Source of the DNA: a virus
Lineage: Duplodnaviria; Heunggongvirae; Uroviricota; Caudoviricetes
DNA length: 38,174 bases
Virus record (IMG/VR): IMGVR_UViG_2531839455_000003
Reading direction: 5' to 3' (one strand)
The translations under genes were made by a program, and so were the position numbers. The notes under the pieces are model-generated. The model did not search any database. It was given only the letters and a program-made list of their open reading frames with translations, and had not been told where the DNA came from. Below, piece by piece: positions 22,396-38,174 of this stretch. Numbering within the stretch: the first letter of the stretch is position 1; every line of letters starts with the position of its first letter.

Positions 22396-24147
22396 ATGAT
22401 TCAGGACGCTTTTGTGCGCCAGCGTGCGCGGCAACTTTACTGGCAGGGTTATCCGCCCGCAGAAATATCACGTCTGATGGGAATAAACCCGAACACGATT
22501 TATGCGTGGAAAAAACGCGACCAGTGGGATGAAACGCCACCCGTGCAGCGTGTCACGCAGTCCATCGATGCGCGCCTCATCCAGCTCACTGAAAAACAGA
22601 ATAAAACAGGTGGTGACTTCAAGGAAATAGACCTGCTGACCCGGCAGCTTAAAAAACTGCATGATGGCCAGCCGGATGCGACGGCCACAGGAAAGAAAGG
22701 CCGGGCGAAAAAACTCAAAAATCATTTCACGCCGGAACAGATTGCCGCACTGCGGGAAAAAATCATCAGCAGGCTGGAGTGGCATCAGCGGGGCTGGTTT
22801 GACTCCCTGACCCTTTGCAGGGAAGCCGGGATACGTAACAGGATGATCCTGAAATCCCGACAGATTGGGGCGACCTGGTATTTTGCACAGGAAGCTCTGC
22901 TGATGGCGCTGCGTGACGATGTGGCGCAACCTTACCAGCGTAACCAGATTTTTTTGTCTGCGTCGCGTCGTCAGGCGTTCCAGTTTAAAAGCATTATTCA
23001 GAAGGCCGCGGCTGAAGTTGATGTGGAGCTGAAAGGGGGCGATAAAATCATCCTCTCCAACGGCGCAGAGCTGCATTTTCTCGGCACTTCTGCTGCGTCG
23101 GCACAGTCCTATACGGGCAATTTTTATTTTGATGAATTTTTCTGGGTCAGTCGCTTTGCTGAACTGCGCAAGGTGGCTGGCGCTATGGCAACCCTCAGCG
23201 GACTGCGGCGCACATACTTCTCCACGCCATCCACCGAAACGCACGAGGCATACGCCTACTGGAACGGCGACCGCTGGAACGAGAAAAAGGCCTCGCATAA
23301 ACGCCAGCGTTTTTCTGTGGACTGGAAAACGCTGCATAACGGGCTTATCTGCCCTGACCGGACGTGGCGGCAAATTGTCACGCTGGAAGATGTGGTTAAT
23401 CACGGCTGGAAACACACCGATATTGATGAAATTCGTGATGAAAACACCGAAGACGAGTTCCTCAATCTCTATATGTGTGAGTTTGTTCGCGAAGGGGAAT
23501 CGGCATTTAACCTGAATATCCTGATTGGCTGCGGTGTTGACGGATACGACGACTGGAAAGACTGGAAACCTTTTGCTCCCCGCCCGATGGGGAATCGTCC
23601 GGTATGGATTGGGTATGACGCAAACGGCAGCAGTGGCAACGGCGACAGCGGCGCGGTGTCCGTGGTGGTTCCTCCGGCTGTTCCTGGTGGCCGTTTTCGA
23701 ACGGTGGAGACGCGACGCGTTCAGGGGCTGGAGTTTGAAGAACAGGCCAGAGTCATTGAAGAGTTCACGTGTCGCTACAACGTGGAACACATCGGCATTG
23801 ATGTGACGGGCGGAAACGGGGAGGCTGTTTATCAGATAGTGAAGCGGTTTTTCCCTGCTGCTATTCCGTACACCTTCACGCTGTCATCCAAACGGTCGCT
23901 GGTACTGAAAATGCTGCAAATAATGCGTGCCGGACGGTGGGAATACGATCGCGCCGAACGCGAGCTGGTCGCGGCCTTTAACGCCGTGCGTAAGGTGAAA
24001 ACACCGGGCGGCTTTATCACTTACGAAACGGACCGCGCGAGGGGGATCAGCCACGGCGACCTTGCGTGGGCAACCATGCTTGCTGTCATTAACGAACCAA
24101 TTGGCGGCGAAGGAGAAAACGAGCGTTTCACGGTTATGGAGTTCTGA
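22396..24147 (+). CDS. P: terminase large (ATPase) subunit gpP
   Basis: 583 aa; N-terminal HTH-like region followed by the ATPase/nuclease body. Confidence 0.93.
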   Translation: MIQDAFVRQRARQLYWQGYPPAEISRLMGINPNTIYAWKKRDQWDETPPVQRVTQSIDARLIQLTEKQNKTGGDFKEIDLLTRQLKKLHDGQPDATATGKKGRAKKLKNHFTPEQIAALREKIISRLEWHQRGWFDSLTLCREAGIRNRMILKSRQIGATWYFAQEALLMALRDDVAQPYQRNQIFLSASRRQAFQFKSIIQKAAAEVDVELKGGDKIILSNGAELHFLGTSAASAQSYTGNFYFDEFFWVSRFAELRKVAGAMATLSGLRRTYFSTPSTETHEAYAYWNGDRWNEKKASHKRQRFSVDWKTLHNGLICPDRTWRQIVTLEDVVNHGWKHTDIDEIRDENTEDEFLNLYMCEFVREGESAFNLNILIGCGVDGYDDWKDWKPFAPRPMGNRPVWIGYDANGSSGNGDSGAVSVVVPPAVPGGRFRTVETRRVQGLEFEEQARVIEEFTCRYNVEHIGIDVTGGNGEAVYQIVKRFFPAAIPYTFTLSSKRSLVLKMLQIMRAGRWEYDRAERELVAAFNAVRKVKTPGGFITYETDRARGISHGDLAWATMLAVINEPIGGEGENERFTVMEF

Positions 24148-25193
24148 TGAGCAGAAAAAATAAAAAAGTGCGCATGAGTTCACGCATTGATCTCGCTGAT
24201 GCGCTCAGGAAAGAATCATCGCTCAGTGCATTCACATTTGATGGTCCTTATCGCCTGACCGGGCATGACCTGCTGGACAATATGTACTGTGCTGATAACG
24301 GGCGGTGGTATGAAACCCCGGTGGACTGGTACGGTCTGGCAAGAGCAGCCCGGCAAACGTCCTGGCATCAGTCTGCGCTTTACTTTAAGCGCAATGTATT
24401 ACTCGGTTGCTACATCCCGCACCCGCTGCTTTCCCGGCAGGATTTCTCGGCGCTGGCGCTGGACTGGTTTGTGTTCGGTAACGCATTCCTTGAGCTTCGA
24501 AGCAATATGCTCGGCGAACCGCTTAAATTACGGCACGCACTGGCGAAATACATGCGACGCGGAAGCGATCTTGAATCATGGTGGTATGTGCAGGATGGCA
24601 AGGACGCGTTCCAGTTTCGCCCTGGCAAAGTGTGCCACCTGATGAATCCGGACATTAACCAGGAAATTTACGGCATGCCGGAATATCTTGGCGCATTACT
24701 CTCGGCCAGCCTGTCTCATTCGGCGGACATGTTCAGAAAACTGTATTACGACAATGGATCCCACGCCGGGTGCATCATCTACATCGGTGCAGCGCAGGTG
24801 AACCGCGAAAGCATGGACTCCCTGAAAGAAACGTTACAGGGTGCGCGTGGTGGTGGTGCGTTTAAAAACGTGCTCATCCATGCGCCCAACGGGGGCAAAG
24901 AGGGGGTGCAAATTTTGCCGTTCCAGCAGATCACAGCAAAAGATGAGTTCATGAATGTTAAGGCGGCATCCCGTGATGATGTGCTGGCTGCGCACCGCGT
25001 TCCGCCGCAACTGATGGGGGCGATGCCGGGCGAAAAAAGTGCGTTTGGTGATGTGGAGAAGGCCGCGCGGGTTTACGCAATTAACGAGCTGATGCCCGTC
25101 ATGGAGGCCATGAAGCACATCAATGACTGGCTTGGCGAAGAGGTGATCCGCTTTAACCCTTACGCACTGTTAGACACCCAGCCCACATCCTGA
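24147..25193 (+). CDS. Q: portal (capsid portal vertex) protein gpQ
   Basis: 348 aa; overlapping stop/start with P (ATGA). Confidence 0.93.
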   Translation: MSRKNKKVRMSSRIDLADALRKESSLSAFTFDGPYRLTGHDLLDNMYCADNGRWYETPVDWYGLARAARQTSWHQSALYFKRNVLLGCYIPHPLLSRQDFSALALDWFVFGNAFLELRSNMLGEPLKLRHALAKYMRRGSDLESWWYVQDGKDAFQFRPGKVCHLMNPDINQEIYGMPEYLGALLSASLSHSADMFRKLYYDNGSHAGCIIYIGAAQVNRESMDSLKETLQGARGGGAFKNVLIHAPNGGKEGVQILPFQQITAKDEFMNVKAASRDDVLAAHRVPPQLMGAMPGEKSAFGDVEKAARVYAINELMPVMEAMKHINDWLGEEVIRFNPYALLDTQPTS

Positions 25194-25617: not shown

Positions 25618-25654
25618 TTGTGCAAATTTGTGCACTATTGTGCATTTGTATAGT
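25618..25654 (+). promoter_or_regulatory. three helically phased TTGTGCA direct repeats with a candidate -10 (TATAGT) upstream of the cargo operon
   Basis: TTGTGCA at 25618, 25628 and 25638 (exact 10-bp spacing); TATAGT at 25649-25654; about 70 nt upstream of ATG 25724. Confidence 0.4.
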
Positions 25655-25723
25655 GAAAAAAATATAGCAGAAAGTATACTTAGCGCCTTGTGGGCTACGT
25701 TAACTTTGCAGGAACATTTGGAA

Positions 25724-27103
25724 ATGAAAAAAATCAATAAAGAAGATTCTAAAAGAACCTTTTTACGTGGATGGTTGCGATTTCTTCGTAGCGTTGAGAG
25801 AGCTAAGAAAAAAAAGCCTGCGCAAGAGAAAAATGGTAGTCTTCGTTTTTCCGATGAAACAACTCCTGTCCAAAACCAAGTCGCTACGTTCATTGAAAAT
25901 ATATCGATTATAAAAGAGTATGACTCATCAATTCTTCGTCGTGACGCAGAGAAGATATTAATACCTAAATATTTTGACTTATATGACAATCCAGAGAAAT
26001 CTCTGCTATTTATTAGTGCAGCCACAAAATTAATTGCAAGAGGTAAATGGAAATCATATATTTTTGATTACAAGAAAAACAAAAAACACTGTCTTGGTCT
26101 TGAGTGTCTATTAGGTGTTGCTCTTACAGCAGCAAGGCAAAGTAATATAAATTTCAAAGATACGATGATTCAGATTAATGGTATCTACCCTAAAGATGAA
26201 CAGTATCTTGAAATTATCAGGGATGTCGGGCTTGTAAAAGAGATTAGTAATGCTGCACCAGGTAAAGTTCTGGACTCTACTGAAGCATCGAAAAAAGCGA
26301 ATCCGAAGAAACGAATCTTCTCTGCTGATAGTATCGGAAAGGAGAATGCTTCTGCCTTTGCCCATGACAGAAAAAATGTCACTGCTGAAAAATTTACCGC
26401 ATACATAAACGAATGCTTAAATGATCATAATTTAAAACTTGTACATGAGGCAGAAAAGCATTTAACTTCCTGCATGGGGGAACTCCTTGATAATGCGGAG
26501 CGGCATTGTGGGTTAGAGCAACGCCCACGCTGGTATTTGAGAGGTTTTGTTAATAATAACGTACGAAACCCCATATGTGAGTTGGCTGTTTTCAATTTTG
26601 GGAAAACTATCAGCGAAACTTTTGATAATTTACCTGAGGATCATTTTTCATTAAGTCAACAAGTTAATCCATACATAAATAAGCATATTAAGAAAAAGGG
26701 TATGTTTAAGGAAGGATTAACAACAGTAGCGGCCTTGCAAGGGCGGGTGAGTTGTAAAAACGAGAAAGAAACTGACAGTTCTGGCACCGGAACAATTGAA
26801 TTATTGAAGTTATTTCAAGATATGCATGATAATCTTAAAAAAATGGGAAGAGATATTAAAGGTGGGATAAAAATGACTTTAATATCTGGTAGTACTCATA
26901 TTAACTTTGATGGATCATATAAATTAAAGCAAAGGTTGGTTAATGACGAGGAAAGTGACATTTTTACTTACCCTTTTAATGATGTAGGGCTTGAATCTGA
27001 ACCGGATCGCAACTATCTTAAGCGTATGAAGGATGCTCGATTTCCTGGAGTTATGATCAATATTCGTTTTCCTCTACCAGAAAACGCCACCCAGCGAACT
27101 TGA
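25724..27103 (+). CDS. cargo gene 1: predicted GHKL/Bergerat-fold ATPase-like protein (possible Ser/His-kinase-type), function unknown
   Basis: 459 aa from the first ATG; AT-rich. N-box-like motif GELLDNAERH (E-x3-N-A-x2-H), then a degenerate G1-like FNFGKT and a G2-like SSGTGTIELL glycine loop in the C-terminal half. Confidence 0.7.
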   Translation: MKKINKEDSKRTFLRGWLRFLRSVERAKKKKPAQEKNGSLRFSDETTPVQNQVATFIENISIIKEYDSSILRRDAEKILIPKYFDLYDNPEKSLLFISAATKLIARGKWKSYIFDYKKNKKHCLGLECLLGVALTAARQSNINFKDTMIQINGIYPKDEQYLEIIRDVGLVKEISNAAPGKVLDSTEASKKANPKKRIFSADSIGKENASAFAHDRKNVTAEKFTAYINECLNDHNLKLVHEAEKHLTSCMGELLDNAERHCGLEQRPRWYLRGFVNNNVRNPICELAVFNFGKTISETFDNLPEDHFSLSQQVNPYINKHIKKKGMFKEGLTTVAALQGRVSCKNEKETDSSGTGTIELLKLFQDMHDNLKKMGRDIKGGIKMTLISGSTHINFDGSYKLKQRLVNDEESDIFTYPFNDVGLESEPDRNYLKRMKDARFPGVMINIRFPLPENATQRT

Positions 27104-27113
27104 GGACAGGTAC

Positions 27114-27458
27114 ATGAAAATGGCTGACATCACCATAGATTTCAATAAGTTAGTAAAAGATAGTAACAAGAAACTTTTTGCTGGACGTTCTAATGGGCGC
27201 CAGGCCTATGATTACTTTAATATAGGGAAATTTTGCACAACCAGTAATGATAGATTATATCTATTGATCCCCAAGGGAATTGTTGTATCAAGCTCATACT
27301 TTCTAGGTATGCTTGAAACGGTTTTGCCGAAATTTTCTTCGCCTAGCGAATTTTATAGTCGCACTGTACTTGATGGTCGTGAATATAAAGAAGGTATGCT
27401 TTCTGAATTAGATAGAGCTGTAAGGAGAGGCTTACATAAAAATGTTCCCTTCTTTTAA
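27114..27458 (+). CDS. cargo gene 2: small cytoplasmic protein, possible STAS-like (anti-sigma-antagonist fold) partner
   Basis: 114 aa, 10 nt after the gene 1 stop (SD GGACAGG). Motif LYLLIPKGIVVSSSYFLGMLETV resembles the beta-strand plus DSSG serine loop of SpoIIAA/RsbV-type STAS domains; assigned by motif only. Confidence 0.6.
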   Translation: MKMADITIDFNKLVKDSNKKLFAGRSNGRQAYDYFNIGKFCTTSNDRLYLLIPKGIVVSSSYFLGMLETVLPKFSSPSEFYSRTVLDGREYKEGMLSELDRAVRRGLHKNVPFF

Positions 27459-28251
27459 AAATATTTTTCAAATCAAAATGACAGCGCTGTCTGTCATTTT
27501 TTTTATATTCCCCGCAGCTTGCTCTGTGACAGATTTTTCCAATAAAGAAAACATTGAATGTAATGAGTCACTTTATCCAAACACGCCTTTTTATATTTCC
27601 GATTCAGGACTTAGTGGTATATCATCACCGTTTTTGTTATCCGGAAACCCGAATGATGGCTTGATGTTTTGTGAAAAGGCAAACGACACCTTTCATAAGT
27701 TATCTCTGGCAAGGGATAACAAAAAAGATTTATTTGCTAATTATTTCAAAGATGTTCCAAATTCCTATGATATATATAATATTGTAAAGGTTCCGGAAAA
27801 TGGTCCAGAGTGGATTTCTATTGGCATCTCTTTATTTGCTTTAGTTTCATCCTTTGTTATTCCTTGTGTTCAACATAGAAAAGAACGTAAAGAAGCTATT
27901 AATGAAGGGTATTGGGTAAGAGAAGTAATTATGCCTAAAATTAATGGGTTGGCATTCGATGTTGTGCAAAGTTTTAAAAACTCCATGGCATTATCAGAAG
28001 AGGAGTTTCTTAGTGTATTCAGTAATACTCTTTTACCAAAACTAGGAGAGTTACGGGATTCATTATATTTGTTTAATAGTTTTCCAGAATTAAATGCAGA
28101 TATTGAAAATCTAGAAAGTATTTGTGACTCCTTGGAGGAAGAAGTTTCCAATCATATAGACTCGCCTAATGAAATAAGAATTTCTGATATATCAATGTTT
28201 CATTCCAAATTAATACAGAAATTAATTTTACTTCATAAGAAGATAGGTTGA
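27442..28251 (+). CDS. cargo gene 3: membrane protein (N-terminal signal/anchor plus internal TM helix), candidate effector
   Basis: 269 aa. Start overlaps the gene 2 end by 17 nt; SD AAGGAGAGG upstream. N-terminal hydrophobic segment MTALSVIFFIFPAAC, internal TM EWISIGISLFALVSSFVIPCV, acidic C-terminal domain. Confidence 0.65.
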   Translation: MFPSFKNIFQIKMTALSVIFFIFPAACSVTDFSNKENIECNESLYPNTPFYISDSGLSGISSPFLLSGNPNDGLMFCEKANDTFHKLSLARDNKKDLFANYFKDVPNSYDIYNIVKVPENGPEWISIGISLFALVSSFVIPCVQHRKERKEAINEGYWVREVIMPKINGLAFDVVQSFKNSMALSEEEFLSVFSNTLLPKLGELRDSLYLFNSFPELNADIENLESICDSLEEEVSNHIDSPNEIRISDISMFHSKLIQKLILLHKKIG

Positions 28252-28296: not shown

Positions 28297-31044
28297 CTAT
28301 CGTGTTCGATGCAATAAACTGATTTTTTTGCGAGCATGTTTAGTGGTTTCACTGATTCTCTGTGCGTGCTCTGCGTCGCGGATGGCGCGCAGCATGTCAG
28401 AAAGTACGGTAACGGGTGTTTTCATGGTGTTCTGGTCTTGCTGAAGTGTGGATGCCAGGCGTGCGGCGGCTTCAGGGTCTGATGCCTCTAGTTGTTCCAG
28501 ATAGCTGGCGACCGGGTTATGGCGGATCTCCGTGCTGCTTACGCCGTGATTACGACTCAGGCGTTGCCAGAGCTGCGTGATTCGGCTGTCCGGGCGGGTA
28601 TCCTGTTTGCGTACAATTTCAAATCCCTGCGGTGCAATGATGCTGCCGCCAACGTACAGACTGCCGCCCCGTAACAGGTGCTGCATCTGCTGTTCACCGA
28701 TATGCAGGCCGAGAGATTCAGCAGACTCCCGCCATTCTTTAGCGAGTAACTCGTGGTTATCAGGCAAAGGCTGTGGCTGTTTGCGGCTCTGTGTCCAGTT
28801 CTGCATTTCATCACTGCTGTTTTTTGCCTGTTTGTCACGCAGCGAACGCATCAGTGCCCGGCGTTCGTGCCGTTTCAGTGAGCGCATCCATTCATTCACG
28901 TCAACGCCTTCAGGAAGCCGCGGCCACGGTGCTGGCCGTTCTTCCGGCTGTTCTGTCCCGTTGTTGTCCGTTTCCTGTACACGGGGACAGTTATTGCCAC
29001 GAGTCCAAGGGGCGGCAGGGCCGCCCTGAAGGTCAAAACCATTTTCGCGGGCGCTGTCTTCCGTTTCCGGTTTACGTCTTACCAGTTTCCAGTTATCCGG
29101 ATGCGTGCACACACGGGAGGATTCCCCGATGAGTGGTGACCAGATCCCGTAAATCTGTACGCTCTGTTCGCCGTAATCATTCAGCTCATCTGCGAGGTCG
29201 TAGGCGGTGCGAATCAGGTAGTCTTTGCGTGGAACAAGTACGCCGCCCTGTTTTTCAATGTAGGTGGCAAAACACCCGGCATCGGCGGCAGCGAGTACCG
29301 CATCCATTGCGTCATCTTTCAGTCGTTGCGGGCCTTCCGGGTTGCGTGCCATCTGGCTGGCAAGGCGGCGCAGTTCACGCCACACCTGACGGGAGGGGAT
29401 GCCAAAGAACTGGAACTGGCGGACCCGATGAAGGCGCGCCCAGCCGATGGCGCGCTCCACACTCTCGGCCATTGATTTTCCGGTTTCGTGGTCAACGCGT
29501 GGCTTGCCCGTTTTCGGGTCGATGCCATCCACGGCGCGGCTGTCCAGGTTCTTTCCGATGTAGGTCGCGATATAGCTGGTTGGTGTGCCTTTTGAGCCGT
29601 CGACATACTCCGCCTTAAAGCGCGGAGTAATATCATTGCCCAGCTCGTGGCGGTCTTCCTGAATGGCAATATCGCGGGTGATGGCCACGATGCTGTCGAT
29701 TTCTTCCGGATGAGCAAAGACCATCATATGCCAGTGCACGGTGCCGTCATGGTGAGGCTCCACCGTGCGGATGCCATACCAGCGAAGACCGTCGCGGTTC
29801 AGTTTTTTGCGGACCGCCGCAAAAAACGTGTTAACCAGGTAATCGCTGGAGTCGCGCATGGTGGCCCCGTTCCATTTGGGATTCGGATGACCGTTCTCTG
29901 TTGTGGCGTGGTATTTTGACGGGCAGGTGACAGTCAGAAACACCGCTTTGTCGCCACGGGCTTCGGCCAGAAGTTCCAGCCCCTTCATGGTGGCCATCAT
30001 TTCTGCCTTACGGTGAACCGGGTTACTTACTCCCGCGTAATACACCGTCTCGAGATCAATCGTGAACCCGTCTTCGTTTTCCAGCATGAAACTTTTCAGG
30101 AAATCGCGTGTTTTCTCGCGCTGTGCGCGAAACTCGCTTAACGCGTCCTGGCTCAAATAGGGCGATGTTTTTCTGGAAACCAGACAGGCGGCGCGGAGTT
30201 GTTCTTCTCTCCACTCGCAACGTAACAGCCACAGTTTGCGTTTCCACCATTCCGCACAGGTCAGGCGAAGGATTGCGCCCGGCAGCAGCTCCGTGTCCGG
30301 TTCGTTCCTCCGGTCTTTATCTGTTGTCAGTGCGTCATAATGTGGAGGCATGATGTGCAGGTGTAACGCCATGCGGGCCAGCATCTGATACGCCTTCAGC
30401 GTTACATCCATGGTCAGTTCGCCATCGGTCGCGCCAAAGCCATCGCAGAGTTTTTCGAAGGTGCTGCTGAACATCGCCGCCGTCATGGTGGCCAGCGTCT
30501 GTATCTGGTGTTTGTTGAGCTGCGGCAGGTAAAGCAAATCGTCCAGGCGTTCGCGTCCGGCAAGGGAGCGATAACCCGGTGTCAGCCAGTGTCCGTCAGT
30601 GCGATCCAGACGTTCGAATATTTTGCGCAGGGTTCCGCGTGCATAGCGTTCCGCCTGCCAGCTCTTTTTGCCTTTCCGGCGATCGGCTTCCTGTTTTTTG
30701 CGCAGGAAGGAGAGGTGGCGAATAAGCGGATCGCGCAGATAGGACGGCAGCAGGCGCAGCGAGGCCATGGCTTCATCCACCGCGCCGCGTGCCTGTTTTC
30801 TGGCGTCTCCTGCCAGTGCGATGGTTTTGTCCTGTTTTTCCTGTGCGTCCAGGCTTTTATTAATCAGGTTGCCCAGCGGCGTGGCGGAGAACGCCGCATC
30901 AGCCATTTTCTGGCGGCGCTCGTTCTCTGCCCGGTAGGCATCCAGCCAGGAGGAAAGCACGGATTCAGGAGCGGGGATCCCCGTTCCTTCACGCCCTACT
31001 GCGTGGCGCGGTTGTTGCCAGTCCCTGATGTACTCTGTCGTCAT
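28297..31044 (-). CDS. A: replication initiation endonuclease gpA (rolling-circle, HUH-type)
   Basis: 915 aa with HHDGTVHWHMMVF (HUH-like) and a downstream Tyr-containing region; longer than P2 A, so an extension or different start is possible. Confidence 0.88.
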   Translation of the reverse strand: MTTEYIRDWQQPRHAVGREGTGIPAPESVLSSWLDAYRAENERRQKMADAAFSATPLGNLINKSLDAQEKQDKTIALAGDARKQARGAVDEAMASLRLLPSYLRDPLIRHLSFLRKKQEADRRKGKKSWQAERYARGTLRKIFERLDRTDGHWLTPGYRSLAGRERLDDLLYLPQLNKHQIQTLATMTAAMFSSTFEKLCDGFGATDGELTMDVTLKAYQMLARMALHLHIMPPHYDALTTDKDRRNEPDTELLPGAILRLTCAEWWKRKLWLLRCEWREEQLRAACLVSRKTSPYLSQDALSEFRAQREKTRDFLKSFMLENEDGFTIDLETVYYAGVSNPVHRKAEMMATMKGLELLAEARGDKAVFLTVTCPSKYHATTENGHPNPKWNGATMRDSSDYLVNTFFAAVRKKLNRDGLRWYGIRTVEPHHDGTVHWHMMVFAHPEEIDSIVAITRDIAIQEDRHELGNDITPRFKAEYVDGSKGTPTSYIATYIGKNLDSRAVDGIDPKTGKPRVDHETGKSMAESVERAIGWARLHRVRQFQFFGIPSRQVWRELRRLASQMARNPEGPQRLKDDAMDAVLAAADAGCFATYIEKQGGVLVPRKDYLIRTAYDLADELNDYGEQSVQIYGIWSPLIGESSRVCTHPDNWKLVRRKPETEDSARENGFDLQGGPAAPWTRGNNCPRVQETDNNGTEQPEERPAPWPRLPEGVDVNEWMRSLKRHERRALMRSLRDKQAKNSSDEMQNWTQSRKQPQPLPDNHELLAKEWRESAESLGLHIGEQQMQHLLRGGSLYVGGSIIAPQGFEIVRKQDTRPDSRITQLWQRLSRNHGVSSTEIRHNPVASYLEQLEASDPEAAARLASTLQQDQNTMKTPVTVLSDMLRAIRDAEHAQRISETTKHARKKISLLHRTR

Positions 31045-31488: not shown

Positions 31489-31719
31489 TTAATGGAGTTT
31501 GTTTTGCTGCTGGATGAGCTTTTGAAGCTCGCGCAGATCATCTGCCAGATAGCTGAAAACAGAGGCGGAATAGCTGTTCGATAGTGCGTGACTGCGTTCA
31601 TGCAGCATATTGATGTGCATGATATGCGCGACGCGGAATGCGCGGAAAAGTCTGCGGTTGATTTCAGTCTGGATGTGACGACGCTCCGCGATAGTGCGGT
31701 GCTGTTTGCGGTTTGCCAT
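31489..31719 (-). CDS. hypothetical small basic protein
   Basis: 76 aa; competing overlapping ORFs look spurious. Confidence 0.45.
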   Translation of the reverse strand: MANRKQHRTIAERRHIQTEINRRLFRAFRVAHIMHINMLHERSHALSNSYSASVFSYLADDLRELQKLIQQQNKLH

Positions 31720-32059
31720 GGTGTGGCCTCTTTGTTGGTAAGTTTTGAATACTCACCATCCAGAGCTGCGAAACTGTGGGTGGCGAGACGTACGAGGTTC
31801 GCAGTACCGGTCAACAAAGAAAACCCGGCCCGACCGAAGTCGGCCCCGTACGCCCCACCATAATTCTGATGCGAAAAAATGTGCGGCAATGCGGTACGCA
31901 CAAAAAAACCGCTGGCGCGGTTGTGCGCTTTGTTGATCAGCAGGCTGCGAAACCCGGCACCCGTTTTATGAGATGCAACGGAAATGTAACCTGACTGATT
32001 GCGGCATGGCAAGCGGTTTTTTTGTGAGAACGGCATACTAAAAAAATCCTGATACTGCT

Positions 32060-32084
32060 CCGGCCAGCGATTTTCACTGGCCGG
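32060..32084. terminator. hairpin CCGGCCAG-(9 nt)-CTGGCCGG downstream of the SPFH gene
   Basis: Perfect 8-bp GC stem 7 nt past the SPFH stop; T-rich sequence on both sides at some distance. Confidence 0.4.
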
Positions 32085-32090
32085 GTTTAA

Positions 32091-32921
32091 TTACTTCACC
32101 GGAACAAACGGAACAGCGGTGTTGCTGGTCATGTATTGCGGCAGCGTGCCGTTCCATTTGTTGATTGCTTCCAGCTCCATAACGCCGGGATTCTGGCGCA
32201 GAGCTTCACCGCGTAAACGAATGGCGTCGGCTTCAGCCTGGGCTTTTGTGCGAATGGCATCAGCCTGTCCGGCAGCTTCTGCGCGCAACATGTTGGCTTC
32301 TGCTTCGCGTTGCTTGACTTCCTGTTCGCGTTGCAGGGTTTTCTGGTTTGCCGTGACTTTGGCATTAATGCTGTCGATAACGGTTGACGGGTACTCCGGC
32401 TTACCCACATATGAGAGGCTCATTACCTGAATACCGATAGGTGTCATTTCCTCCTGAATGTCTTTAAGAGCTGCATCCAGTAGTTCAGATTTCCCGCCGT
32501 CGATAAATTTGTCGGTGGTCATTTTGCTGGCCAGTCGGTTGAGTGCATCGGCGATCTTCTGGCGCAGGTCAGTGTCGGTAATGTCATCCACGCCTTTGCG
32601 GTAGGTCTGAAACACTGTAGTAACTTTGGATGGATCAACCTTGTAGGCCACACCGATGTGATAGCCGATGGTTGTGCCGTCACTCATCTGGAAGCTGAAC
32701 GGCTCATCGTAGGTCTTCATTTGTTTGAAGGTCGGGAAGATGTAAACCTCGGTATTCCAGCCAGTCCAGTAGCGGCCAACGCCAACCACTTCGCCGACGC
32801 CTTTGTCGTCGCCCAGTTTGTTGACTTTGATGCCCACATTACCTGGCTCAACGCGATCGCAACCAACCAGCAGGATGGCGGCAAAAAGCGGGATAATCTG
32901 AAAGAGTTTGAATTTCTTCAT
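32091..32921 (-). CDS. SPFH/band-7 (stomatin/prohibitin-like) lipoprotein
   Basis: 276 aa; lipoprotein signal MKKFKLFQIIPLFAAILLVGC; band-7-like core; C-terminal Ala/Glu/Gln-rich coiled-coil (REAEANMLRAEAAGQADAIRTKAQAEADAIRLRGEA). Confidence 0.82.
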   Translation of the reverse strand: MKKFKLFQIIPLFAAILLVGCDRVEPGNVGIKVNKLGDDKGVGEVVGVGRYWTGWNTEVYIFPTFKQMKTYDEPFSFQMSDGTTIGYHIGVAYKVDPSKVTTVFQTYRKGVDDITDTDLRQKIADALNRLASKMTTDKFIDGGKSELLDAALKDIQEEMTPIGIQVMSLSYVGKPEYPSTVIDSINAKVTANQKTLQREQEVKQREAEANMLRAEAAGQADAIRTKAQAEADAIRLRGEALRQNPGVMELEAINKWNGTLPQYMTSNTAVPFVPVK

Positions 32922-33121
32922 TGTTTGATTTCCTTGATGTACTTACTGAAAAGGCGAACAACGCCTGCCGGGTACAGCATGGCAATGAAAATGCCCAGCA
33001 ATACCAGGAAGGAGCTGTCTGATGAAATCATTCGGGGGAGTAGTCCTGCATACAGAATGAGAGAAACGAGGACGCATACCAGCGCCCACATGTATGCGCG
33101 AAACCAGGTCTTTTTGTTCAT
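32918..33121 (-). CDS. small two-TM membrane protein translationally coupled to the SPFH gene (NfeD/YqiJ-like partner?)
   Basis: 67 aa with two hydrophobic helices; 4-nt overlap with the SPFH start. Confidence 0.65.
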   Translation of the reverse strand: MNKKTWFRAYMWALVCVLVSLILYAGLLPRMISSDSSFLVLLGIFIAMLYPAGVVRLFSKYIKEIKQ

Positions 33122-33132
33122 ATCACGGTCCT

Positions 33133-33432
33133 TTACTGGTTAAGGAAGAAATCAAAAACCTTGTCGATGCGTTGCAGTAGCTCTCGTTGCATTGCTTCCG
33201 GTGTTTCCGGTTCGCCAGGTGAACCCAGCGTTGCGCAGAAATCAGCGATTTCATGATGGAGCGTCAGGCGAATGGCTGGAGCCATGGTTCTGGCGTGCTC
33301 CAGCTCATCCAGCAGTGCCAGCACAGCAGACGGCGAGAGCATTGCGCGAAACGCCAGTAATTTTTGATGCGTTGCCATTCGTTGCAGGTCAGTCGCCAGT
33401 TCGCGTAGCTTCTGGTGGTTGATGGTGCTCAT
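33133..33432 (-). CDS. hypothetical early protein
   Basis: 99 aa; overlaps the stop of the upstream gene. Confidence 0.55.
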   Translation of the reverse strand: MSTINHQKLRELATDLQRMATHQKLLAFRAMLSPSAVLALLDELEHARTMAPAIRLTLHHEIADFCATLGSPGEPETPEAMQRELLQRIDKVFDFFLNQ

Positions 33433-36144: not shown

Positions 36145-36666
36145 TTAGTTGCCTCTGTTGTTTCTGAGTTGGTCCAGTTTTGAGCTTCTGCCTGTATAAA
36201 CTCGCTTACCGTTAATGGTCTGGCAGTCTTCTTTATTAGCTGGAGAGAACTTCCTTTTCTGGCGGTCATACGTCCAGTAACTTTTCCAGTTGTGCCATTC
36301 TGGGGGCTCGTGCTCTGGTAGCTCATCAGCCAACTTGTCCCACTCTTTGGCGTTAAACCACCATACTCCGTCTGAGTTTTCATCTTCCGGGTTTGTGCGC
36401 GTCTTGTGTCCCGGCATTTGACCGCGATGAATGGCTACGCGCAGTGCAGATTTTGTTAGCCCAATATATGCCGCGCCTTTTTCCAGAGAGCAAAGCCCGG
36501 CGATCGGACCATCCAGCCGTAAAGTCGCTCCTTTTTTGTAGGAACGCTTTTTCTTGTTTTCTTCGTGTTCGTCGTCGTTGGCGGCATCAATGGATCCGCT
36601 GAGTGCGTCACTTTCCTGAAGTGGTTGGTGGTCAGATAACTCTTTATCGGCAATGAAGTCCCGCAT
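36145..36666 (-). CDS. first early-operon protein, possible HTH DNA-binding (Cox/excisionase-like role unproven)
   Basis: 173 aa; ATG 36666 with SD AGAGGA; divergent from the repressor gene; contains LTKSALRVAIHRGQMPGHK. Confidence 0.55.
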   Translation of the reverse strand: MRDFIADKELSDHQPLQESDALSGSIDAANDDEHEENKKKRSYKKGATLRLDGPIAGLCSLEKGAAYIGLTKSALRVAIHRGQMPGHKTRTNPEDENSDGVWWFNAKEWDKLADELPEHEPPEWHNWKSYWTYDRQKRKFSPANKEDCQTINGKRVYTGRSSKLDQLRNNRGN

Positions 36667-36725
36667 TTGTTATCCTCTTGCGTTGGTGCGCTTGTCGCGC
36701 CTTGTGATGGTTTGTTTTGGCTTGT

Positions 36726-36781
36726 AAAGATAACCAAAAGGTTATCTTTGTGCGAGAGGTTAATACTCAAATGGTTATCTT
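36726..36781. promoter_or_regulatory. operator region of the lysogeny switch: palindrome AAAGATAACC-AAAA-GGTTATCTTT plus a third GGTTATCTT half-site over the repressor start codon
   Basis: Perfect 10-bp arms at 36726-36735 and 36740-36749; extra half-site at 36773-36781; lies between divergent starts at 36666 and 36771. Confidence 0.5.
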
Positions 36782-37112
36782 GTCAATAGACTATGCAAAA
36801 AAGTTACGTCAGATACGTAAGGCGGAAGGGTTAACACAAAAGCAGTTTGCGGATATTACTGGGTTGTCTTTGGCAACCATAAGGAATTACGAATCGGGGC
36901 AAAAGAACGCTAGAGCAAAAATCGTTGAGGCGGTTCTGCAAGTCGATCGCTTTGAAAAATACATGCTGTGGCTAATAAAAGATAAGACGCTACCTGTCGC
37001 CGGGCAGATTGCTCCGGCTCTCTCTCTTGATGGATCTATTCAGTCGGAGGGCGATCAGGTTTCAATCGGTATTACCCAAAAATCACCCCGATCAGGCCGC
37101 AATGTTGGCTGA
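36771..37112 (+). CDS. immunity repressor (HTH XRE/Cro-C1 type), P2 C-like in position
   Basis: HTH LRQIRKAEGLTQKQFADITGLSLATIRNYESGQ; upstream of int on the same strand; SD GAGAGG; ATG 36771 preferred over the longer track ORF. Confidence 0.78.
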   Translation: MVILSIDYAKKLRQIRKAEGLTQKQFADITGLSLATIRNYESGQKNARAKIVEAVLQVDRFEKYMLWLIKDKTLPVAGQIAPALSLDGSIQSEGDQVSIGITQKSPRSGRNVG

Positions 37113-37181
37113 CTCTACACATTGAGCGAATTACATATCGCAAGGAGTGTTTAGTTAATTTATCCGTTGGAGGGGCTAATC

Positions 37182-38174
37182 ATGTCGATTAAGCAACTCA
37201 AAGACGGACGTTATCAGGTCGATGTCAGACCGCAGGGGGCGGAAGGAAAGCGGATTCGAAAAATCTTTGCCCTGAAATCAAAGGCTCAGGAGTTTGAGAA
37301 GTATGTGTTACAGAACTTTCATGACAAGCCATGGCAGGCTAAGCCAGCTGATCAGCGGCGATTATCAGAGCTGCTTGATGCGTGGTGGATGCTTGATGGG
37401 CGTAATCAGGCTTACGGGGATAGCTACAGGGTTAGGCTAGGGAAGGTTGTTCGTGAAATGGGAGATCCTCGCGCCAGTCAGATGACGCGAAAATTTATGC
37501 TTGAATATCGGTCAGAGAAATTACAGGCCGGATTAATGCCGTCCAGTATTAATCGTGACTTATGCGTACTGTCTACCATGTTCACGGTGCTGATTGAAGC
37601 TGAGGTCTTTCACAACGCGAACCCTGTACGCGGTATACGAAAACTGAAAGTTCAGAACACAGAGATGGCCTTTCTTTCTGATGATGAGATTGAACGGCTT
37701 CTTGAACGACTGGAGGGTGATGCGCGTCGTGTTGCCATTCTGTGTCTTTCTACTGGTGCCCGATGGAGTGAAGCATCGGAACTACGTGGAGAGCATATCG
37801 TTGGCAACCGGGTGACGTTCTTTAACACCAAAAACGGAAAATCCCGTTCGGTTCCTGTGGCGGATTCGGTCGTGCCTCTGATTAAAACCCGTCGAACGGG
37901 GTTATTGTATCAGGTTGATTATCTGAAGTTCCGGGAGATTCTTCAGGAGGTGAAACCGGATTTGCCGAAGGGGCAGGCTACGCATGTCATGCGTCATACA
38001 TTTGCCACACACTTTATGATGAATGGCGGAAATATTGTTACGTTGCAACGAATCCTGGGGCACGCAACGATTCAGCAAACAATGACGTACGCTCATTTTT
38101 CGCCGGACTTTTTACAGGACGCGATCAACTTTAATCCGCTGGCTGAAAGTGTCCATAAACTGTCCATCGATTAG
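37182..38174 (+). CDS. int: tyrosine recombinase / phage integrase
   Basis: C-terminal catalytic region HVMRHTFATHFMMNGGNIVTLQRILGHATIQQTMTYAHF; ATG 37182 with SD GGAGGGG (6-nt spacer); stop TAG at the last three bases of the window. Confidence 0.93.
   Translation: MSIKQLKDGRYQVDVRPQGAEGKRIRKIFALKSKAQEFEKYVLQNFHDKPWQAKPADQRRLSELLDAWWMLDGRNQAYGDSYRVRLGKVVREMGDPRASQMTRKFMLEYRSEKLQAGLMPSSINRDLCVLSTMFTVLIEAEVFHNANPVRGIRKLKVQNTEMAFLSDDEIERLLERLEGDARRVAILCLSTGARWSEASELRGEHIVGNRVTFFNTKNGKSRSVPVADSVVPLIKTRRTGLLYQVDYLKFREILQEVKPDLPKGQATHVMRHTFATHFMMNGGNIVTLQRILGHATIQQTMTYAHFSPDFLQDAINFNPLAESVHKLSID

Follow-up and report, generated by a model that had tools for sequence, protein, structure and literature searches.

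What an SPFH (Band-7) lipoprotein does in the early region of a P2-like prophage is the question raised by the IMG/VR record IMGVR_UViG_2531839455_000003. The whole 38,174-nt stretch of this caudoviricete DNA was analysed (the window; position 1 is its first letter, and coordinates refer to it unless another locus is named). On its minus strand it carries a gene for a 276-aa lipoprotein (32091-32921), preceded by a gene for a 67-aa protein with two transmembrane (TM) helices (32918-33121). On balance we consider it probable that the two genes form an optional cargo cassette encoding a membrane-scaffold module, which organises the inner membrane or sequesters a host factor in lytic growth.

The initial annotation described two open reading frames (ORFs) that overlap by 4 nt and lie in the early region, the smaller one first. 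This observation of the gene pair is confirmed, and the interpretation first given to it is partly supported. Cox/C (36145-37112) lies on one side of the pair and replication gene A (28297-31044) on the other. The stop codon of the two-TM gene and the start codon of the SPFH gene share the four nucleotides ATGA (32918-32921), an arrangement which implies that translation of the two genes would be coupled. AGGA-type Shine-Dalgarno sequences were found before the starts of both genes.

The 276-aa protein matched the Pfam Band_7 family (PF01145) with E=1.8e-30 and 106.7 bits (gathering cutoff, 23.6), and the SPFH core proposed from the DNA letters was thus borne out by a hidden Markov model search. 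The match spans residues 23-209 (32295-32855), corresponding to positions 2-176 of the 176 in the profile. In PHROGs the protein matched phrog_200, annotated "lipoprotein" (E=8.5e-112). The N-terminus, MKKFKLFQIIPLFAAILLVGC, is a lipoprotein signal peptide (32859-32921) that ends in the lipobox L-V-G-C, with the cysteine at residue 21 and Asp22 at position +2; the pattern tested at the end of the signal peptide was [LVI][ASTVI][GAS]C. Aspartate at +2 is an inner-membrane retention (Lol-avoidance) signal in Enterobacterales. It is present in 103 of 120 close relatives, 100 of which have C-D-R after the lipobox and three C-D-N. Relative to the copies of phiP27, P1-like phages and SSU5, the ratio of nonsynonymous to synonymous substitution rates (dN/dS) of the SPFH gene was 0.04-0.12, which argues that it is a real gene and not a chance ORF.

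In the AlphaFold2 (AF2) monomer model (mean predicted local distance difference test, pLDDT, 75), a beta-rich N-terminal half and an SPFH alpha/beta core are followed by an uninterrupted helix of residues 179-243 (32193-32387, from DSSP), a short helix (247-254) and a disordered tail. The long helix is Ala/Glu/Gln-rich (65 residues, 60% A/E/Q/R/K), in agreement with the coiled-coil tail noted initially; in the model it takes the place of coiled coil CC1, which forms the wall of SPFH cages. A conserved K-W-N-G-x-L-P tail comes after the short helix, and W256, G258, and P261 are invariant or near-invariant among 140 family representatives. A Foldseek search of the PDB with the model returned SPFH cage proteins for all top matches (probability 1.0, 250-300 aligned columns), including PHB1/2, erlin1/2, HflK/C, stomatin, flotillin, and QmcA-YbbJ chains. 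At the sequence level, a profile of the same 140 representatives matched prohibitin-1 (4.7e-10), HflK (1.7e-7), QmcA (6.7e-6), and HflC (1.7e-5) in the PDB, and prohibitin-2 as well. The protein is thus shown, as far as the model describes it, to be a lipobox-bearing SPFH protein with the full architecture of a cage former: core, wall helix, cap helix, and conserved tail. Since this architecture is common to the solved cages, assembly into a ring or cage may be expected, the model itself being that of a monomer.

The SPFH gene is labelled "serine protease" in many Stx2 and Erwinia phage records, and in phiP27. No protease domain was found in the 276-aa protein, and phrog_11227 ("protease") matched its coiled-coil region only (E=4.8e-4). 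This legacy annotation can now be corrected.

The 67-aa protein has hydrophobic segments at residues ~6-30 and ~36-58, with Lys/Arg clusters at both ends. By the positive-inside rule, basic residues at both termini point to an N-in/C-in hairpin, with the turn (LLPRMISSDSS) predicted to face the periplasm. The protein matched phrog_1130, "membrane protein" (E=1.3e-22). When 30 partners were aligned, near-invariance was confined to two residues of the turn, Pro29 and Ser33. No Pfam family was assigned to the protein, the sole match being RseC_MucC at 0.032. The initial annotation likened the pair to an SPFH protein with an NfeD-type partner. The operon logic of that comparison holds, as a small membrane protein is encoded upstream of an SPFH gene; membership of the NfeD/YqiJ families does not. 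No NfeD match was obtained in Pfam for the 67-aa protein at E<=0.1, nor for any of the 30 family members (the protein and 29 relatives) at E<=0.01. A profile of the partner family matched no solved structure in the PDB, although the QmcA-YbbJ complex (8z5g) is deposited there. Only nine residues follow the second TM helix, so an NfeD OB-fold is impossible; this C-terminal domain is what defines NfeD-type partners, whether or not they also have a ClpP-like protease domain.

Association of the two genes was observed well beyond this prophage. A two-TM ORF overlaps the SPFH start, by 4 nt or 20 nt, in 81 of 83 viral loci (phage and IMG/VR). Examples are an unannotated 62-aa ORF in phiP27 with the 4-nt overlap (locus L002, 3304-3492, minus strand), and an unannotated 78-aa homologue in the P1-like phage-plasmid MH445380 with the 20-nt overlap (locus L003, 3809-4045, minus strand). 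Among 1.84 billion cluster representatives, 2889 relatives of the SPFH protein were detected at E<=1e-3 and 221 at E<=1e-30, most of them lipoproteins of ~280 aa. About 19 of the 140 near-full-length representatives are longer (320-390 aa) and have an N-terminal two-TM extension with the same turn motif, arranged as two TM helices, a basic linker, a third hydrophobic segment, and the lipobox cysteine. Partner status was also read from the DNA of 80 genome loci, found by a scan of one genome per species that was seeded with a five-sequence alignment. The partner was separate and upstream in 55 loci, fused in frame in 10, absent in 12, and ambiguous in three, so that with fusions included it adjoins the SPFH gene in 65 of the 80. 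These loci come from Enterobacterales, Xenorhabdus, Morganella, many Dyella and Rhodanobacteraceae, Leptospira, Saprospirales, Bacteroidales, Dependentiae, cyanobacteria, deltaproteobacteria, and Saccharibacteria. Conservation of position and loop motif across bacterial phyla indicates that the 67-aa ORF is a real gene; its dN/dS is <=0.38 despite saturation. These comparisons show the 67-aa protein to be a conserved partner of the SPFH lipoprotein, at least in the genetic sense: upstream, apparently coupled, and fused in some lineages.

Read in order, the fusions run hairpin, cytoplasmic basic linker, signal-like helix, and SPFH, a topology consistent with an SPFH domain that lies on the periplasmic side of the inner membrane. 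Some family members have an uncleaved signal anchor in place of the lipobox. Both the signal anchors and the fusions behind two TM helices are predicted to tether the SPFH domain to the inner membrane with an outward orientation. A different arrangement was observed in one 344-aa protein (P0149), in which the two-TM module is in frame at the C-terminus of the SPFH protein and not at the N-terminus. Unless the module is translated separately (an internal Met-Lys-Lys is present), its topology would be the inverse of that expected; either a swap of the gene order or loss of a stop codon could account for the arrangement.

The window is a P2-like prophage nearest to P88 (Xuanwuvirus), with 94.9% DNA identity over the region and the same gene order. 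Integrase, C, and Cox occupy 36145-38174 and are followed by DUF4761 and other early genes, then replication gene A; the portal gene is at 24147-25193. The initial annotation held that the pair is not part of the P2 core and recommended a comparison across P2-like prophages, and filled, empty, and alternatively filled sites were all seen when this was done. No SPFH or two-TM gene is present in the early operons of P2 and 186. In syntenic prophages of E. coli ST131 and O157:H7 EDL933 the site is empty, and the isrK region begins 18 nt after the stop codon of the Ead/Ea22-like gene. In the Citrobacter phage Shae_phiSM (Xuanwuvirus) the same slot is occupied by a gene for a 183-aa "DNA binding protein". 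Among E. coli prophage matches sampled at even intervals, empty sites far outnumbered filled ones. The alignments thus show an accessory insert, present or absent among otherwise syntenic prophages. A hypervariable defence hotspot was considered for the slot and rejected, as relatives are mostly filled or empty and only one alternative cargo was found.

Alignment with the empty-site ST131 and EDL933 prophages places the junctions at ~32026|32027 and ~33128-33132, between the Ead/Ea22-like stop codon (33133-33135) and the isrK promoter region. The insert (32027-33132, minus strand, ~1.1 kb) therefore comprises a ribosome-binding site, the two-TM gene, the SPFH gene, and a 3' hairpin. The cassette was compared with the window for signs of a foreign base composition, and none was seen (GC 0.510 vs 0.515 for the window). 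The 11-bp GC-rich hairpin (32060-32084, minus strand) starts 6 nt past the SPFH stop codon. Its folding energy is -23.4 kcal/mol (z=-3.9), and none of 200 shuffled sequences was equally stable. A U-run is located 12 nt downstream, a distance at which the hairpin is not a textbook intrinsic terminator; it may act as a terminator or as an mRNA-stabilising element.

The start of the two-TM gene is only 11 nt past the stop codon of the Ead/Ea22-like gene (33133-33432). No sigma-70-like site was detected upstream of the pair in a consensus-only scan of the window and of the phiP27 and P1-like contexts, where counts were no better than in shuffled sequence. Closeness to the preceding early gene and the lack of a detectable promoter suggest that the cassette is on the early lytic transcript and is not a lysogen-expressed unit; the pair is probably co-transcribed with the early lytic operon. 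In P2-type lysogens this operon is repressed by C, and the P2 annotation likewise assigns its silencing to the C repressor.

Directly downstream of the insert we identified isrK RNA (Rfam RF01394, 66.4 bits) and C4 antisense RNA (RF01695, 77.8 bits), which between them occupy 31776-31865 and 31902-31976 (minus strand). A promoter-like TTGCCA-18-TACATT is present at 32012..31983 (minus strand), between these RNAs and the cassette, and a 76-aa ORF annotated in RefSeq as "derepression protein" lies beyond them (31489-31719, minus strand). The set looks like a P1/P7 immI-type RNA-controlled antirepressor module inside a P2-like early operon, and it is kept in prophages that lack the SPFH cassette. 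Elsewhere in the window, ORFs of 491, 114, and 269 aa are found at 25628-28251 (plus strand) between the portal gene and gene A, the position of the P2 old/tin hotspot. P88 has ParM-like partition genes at this slot. Pfam and PADLOC searches gave no match for the three ORFs, which may be uncharacterised cargo, possibly a defence system.

Homologues of the SPFH gene were detected by tblastn in 384 of 50,697 phage records. Temperate or plasmid-like carriers include P88, Shiga toxin (Stx) 2 phages, phiP27, P1-like phages, and SSU5-like phages; virulent or environmental carriers include Bruynoghevirus, Seunavirus GAP31, Kolesnikvirus phiEa104, phiCbK, crAss-like phages, Lak megaphages, and Myxococcus Mx1. 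SSU5, GAP31 (with one small ORF between the genes), and one crAss-like phage have the partner as well. In SSU5-type phage-plasmids and in a 108-kb contig of Yersinia pestis NCTC5923, a 66-aa partner and a 276-aa lipoprotein were observed, with 77% identity. In Dyella jiangningensis, Leptospira, and a Saprospirales genome the pair sits among housekeeping genes with no phage genes nearby. Neighbours at such cellular loci encode peptidases, ribonucleotide reductase, succinate dehydrogenase, and HMG-CoA reductase, and no conserved third gene was seen around the distant cellular homologues. This distribution shows a module of cellular origin that was captured, probably repeatedly, by both temperate and virulent phages.

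Within E. coli, the SPFH gene was found in 715 of 5426 complete genomes (13%), at 417 chromosomal and 390 plasmid places; these counts come from gene-only queries that left out the flanking isrK and Ead sequence. The plasmid copies are partly on P1-like and SSU5-like phage-plasmids. The partner allele of the window was found in 144 genomes, always on the chromosome. DNA homology to Stx2, phiP27, and P1-like phages is confined to ~32124-32864, the mature part of the SPFH protein. Mature proteins are 92-93% identical to those copies, and signal peptides and partners share only 21-45% of their amino acids. The low identity may reflect either rapid drift of hydrophobic segments or exchange of "partner plus signal peptide" as a unit.

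Based on these observations the following mechanism can be proposed. After Sec export and lipidation, Asp at +2 would retain the lipoprotein at the inner membrane, on the periplasmic side, where HflK/C are also found. Oligomers of the SPFH lipoprotein would enclose a patch of membrane within a ring or dome. The partner, as an N-in/C-in hairpin, would lie inside this enclosure and touch the SPFH ring or its lipid anchors. The presumed contact is the periplasmic P-x-L-I-S-S turn of the partner, as this is the only part of the hairpin able to reach a periplasmic SPFH domain; it is also the only exposed and the only conserved element. With less certainty, the cassette may help the phage to develop, either because it organises or stabilises the inner membrane or because it sequesters a host factor located there. 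A classical lysogenic-conversion gene is less likely than a role in lytic growth.

Several points weigh against this reading. The oligomerisation, localisation, and expression it assumes are all deduced from sequence and homologues. The Asp+2 rule is modulated by the residue at +3, and arginine at that position is not the strongest retention context. The promoter scan relied on a crude consensus, and a promoter inside the Ead/Ea22 gene or one not read by sigma-70 would allow expression in the lysogen. A partner is not recognisable in Ab22 or phiEa104. At locus L089 (4221-4918) and locus L088, from E. coli ECMA0423 and Shigella flexneri SFBU1023, IS1 (InsA/InsB ORFs) replaces the partner immediately upstream of a 92%-identical SPFH copy, which accounts for one of the absences among the 80 genome loci. 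Since some phage copies have no partner and one lineage lost it to IS1, the SPFH protein can persist alone. Finally, outer-membrane vesicles are reported to contain an HflK/C-like protein of a Pasteurella prophage (PMC9872710).

Superinfection exclusion or anti-phage defence, in which a periplasm-facing complex in the inner membrane blocks entry of incoming DNA or aborts infection, is the first alternative to consider, and we regard it as unlikely but worth keeping in view. Exclusion was the leading function suggested in the initial annotation, which also named the handling of membrane stress. The cassette is accessory and patchily distributed, and it would act in the compartment of known exclusion proteins, among them T4 Imm/Sp, P22 SieA, and HK97 gp15. 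The PHROGs category of the partner is "moron, auxiliary metabolic gene and host takeover", and in the Vi01-like phage PhiSH19 the SPFH gene adjoins a gene annotated as a superinfection exclusion protein. Virulent phages carry early exclusion genes too, so an early lytic position is compatible with such a function. However, neither protein had a meaningful match to a known defence system: in PADLOC-DB v2 the SPFH protein matched nothing, and the partner matched only PDC-M18B, at chance level (E=0.0078 over 21 residues). The literature searched links no SPFH protein to anti-phage activity. A factor expressed in the lysogen is somewhat disfavoured by the lack of a detectable promoter of its own within a repressor-controlled early operon, by homologues in virulent phages, and by the occurrence of the module in ordinary chromosomal neighbourhoods of several phyla. 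This last point and the mostly binary state of the slot, which is not that of a hypervariable hotspot, also argue against defence.

A more specific proposal, for which we hold equally modest expectations, is that the pair represents an undescribed class of SPFH system: a lipid-anchored, periplasm-facing cage with a two-TM hairpin in place of NfeD as its dedicated partner, which phages of many families would use early to cage a host machine of the inner membrane. Candidate targets would be FtsH, a DNA-entry or transport complex, or the lysis machinery. If this were true, the cage would control the outcome of infection or exclude competitors. In-frame fusions that keep an internal lipobox could then be made as one precursor and split by signal peptidase II.

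Mimicry of HflK/C is a less probable explanation still. According to this idea, which was raised in a Bruynoghevirus paper (PMC8540360), a phage ring would engage the periplasmic domain of FtsH, or another membrane protease, and alter protein turnover; lysis-lysogeny regulators, membrane proteins, and LpxC are possible targets. HflK/C are the closest bacterial homologues with a solved structure and have the same sidedness, and in Stx lambdoid phages the SPFH gene lies in the early-left region near int-xis. Similarity to the NCBIfam HflC and HflK models was detected but is weak (E ~1e-5). Scores were far below the equivalog cutoffs, at 24.3 bits vs 134.4 for HflC (TIGR01932) and 23.5 bits vs 159.4 for HflK (TIGR01933), and prohibitin and erlin match equally well or better. 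Only one SPFH gene is present rather than a K/C pair, and no second paralogous SPFH gene was found in the cassette or its flanks. HflK/HflC orthology was rejected. The gene is also common in strictly virulent phages, which never choose between lysis and lysogeny, and the same paper calls the role "still not clear" (PMC8540360).

That the gene encodes a lysogenic-conversion or virulence lipoprotein, released in vesicles, seems very unlikely. The model would be PM0222 (OAZ06802.1) of Pasteurella multocida, a prophage-encoded HflK/C-like protein of 25-35 kDa in outer-membrane vesicles that is reported to act as a Toll-like receptor (TLR) 1/2 agonist and to induce TNF-alpha and IL-1beta, and whose deletion attenuates virulence (PMC9872710). 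The SPFH protein of the window is a lipoprotein of similar size, encoded on a prophage of an animal-associated bacterium. However, PM0222 is likened to the SPFH lipoprotein by description only and not by sequence, Asp+2 predicts retention in the inner membrane, and any triacylated lipoprotein is able to stimulate TLR1/2. The family is abundant among free-living bacteria and among phages whose hosts are soil, plant, or aquatic bacteria, which argues instead for a cell-autonomous role.

We give equally little credence to the suggestion that the 67-aa ORF is no functional partner but a chance hydrophobic ORF or an unrelated membrane gene: although it diverges very fast where the SPFH protein does not, belongs to no Pfam family, and is missing next to some phage SPFH genes, its position, size, topology, and P-x-L-I-S turn are kept from Enterobacterales to Leptospira, Bacteroidota, and Dependentiae, in-frame fusions recur, and its dN/dS stays below 0.4 even at saturation. 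A holin, considered because of the size and topology of the protein, was rejected, since only one of the 30 family members gave a marginal match to Phage_holin_2 (0.0017) and the pairing persists in non-phage chromosomal loci, where a holin makes no sense.

An optional module that organises the inner membrane or sequesters a host factor during lytic growth remains the reading we prefer for this cassette. In the literature searched (SPFH with anti-phage, superinfection exclusion, prophage, and lysis), no function has been assigned to a phage SPFH protein. A 2026 phage-genomics paper states that the reason for an SPFH gene in a phage genome "remains unclear" (PMC13239085). The HflK/C-FtsH analogy has been drawn for Bruynoghevirus, with the remark that obligately lytic phages encode SPFH proteins (PMC8540360), and an SPFH lipoprotein was detected at trace level in the proteome of a Vi01-like phage (PMC10892097). 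The SPFH protein is already annotated as a member of its superfamily; the module of a lipoprotein SPFH with a dedicated two-TM hairpin was not found described in this literature. Membrane organisers of the SPFH type are universal, and for most of the bacterial ones the function is unclear. Isogenic prophages that naturally carry or lack the cassette offer a tractable system for the role of a periplasmic SPFH cage in a virus and, more widely, for that of this un-catalogued subfamily in bacteria. A specialist is unlikely to be surprised by the gene itself; still, with this cassette a very common but unexplained phage gene becomes tractable.

Comparison with known systems places the pair as follows. 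Prohibitin-1/2 and erlin-1/2 (PDB 8rrh, 9o9z, 9vvg) are the best profile and structural matches to the phage SPFH protein and form a ring or dome on one membrane face, enclosing a microdomain or a protease. The phage pair differs from these eukaryotic organellar hetero-oligomers, which have TM anchors and neither lipid modification nor a two-TM hairpin partner. Among bacterial systems, QmcA faces the cytoplasm, whereas the phage lipoprotein must face the periplasm, so that only the hairpin turn of its partner can reach the SPFH domain. The SPFH-NfeD pairs QmcA-YbbJ and YqiK-YqiJ (PDB 8z5g) resemble the phage pair in the SPFH fold and in the two-gene operon with a small membrane protein; the phage partner differs from YbbJ/YqiJ in having neither the NfeD OB-fold domain nor NfeD sequence similarity. 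HflK/HflC (PDB 7vhp, 7wi3, 9cz2) have an inner-membrane anchor, and their SPFH domains and coiled coils are periplasmic. They share the core, the long wall helix, and the cap with the phage protein (Foldseek probability 1.0; profile E 1.7e-7 for HflK), which in contrast has a lipid anchor in place of a TM helix, is encoded by a single gene, has its own two-TM partner, and falls below the equivalog cutoffs. Direct homologues are the phrog_200 genes P88 gp12, phiP27 L05, SSU5_062, GAP31_159, and phiCbK gp238; annotations of this type read "SPFH domain protein", "lipoprotein", or "putative serine protease", and none carries an assigned function. The closest known counterpart is gp11-gp12 of P88, which is the same cassette as that of the window, at 94.9% DNA identity.

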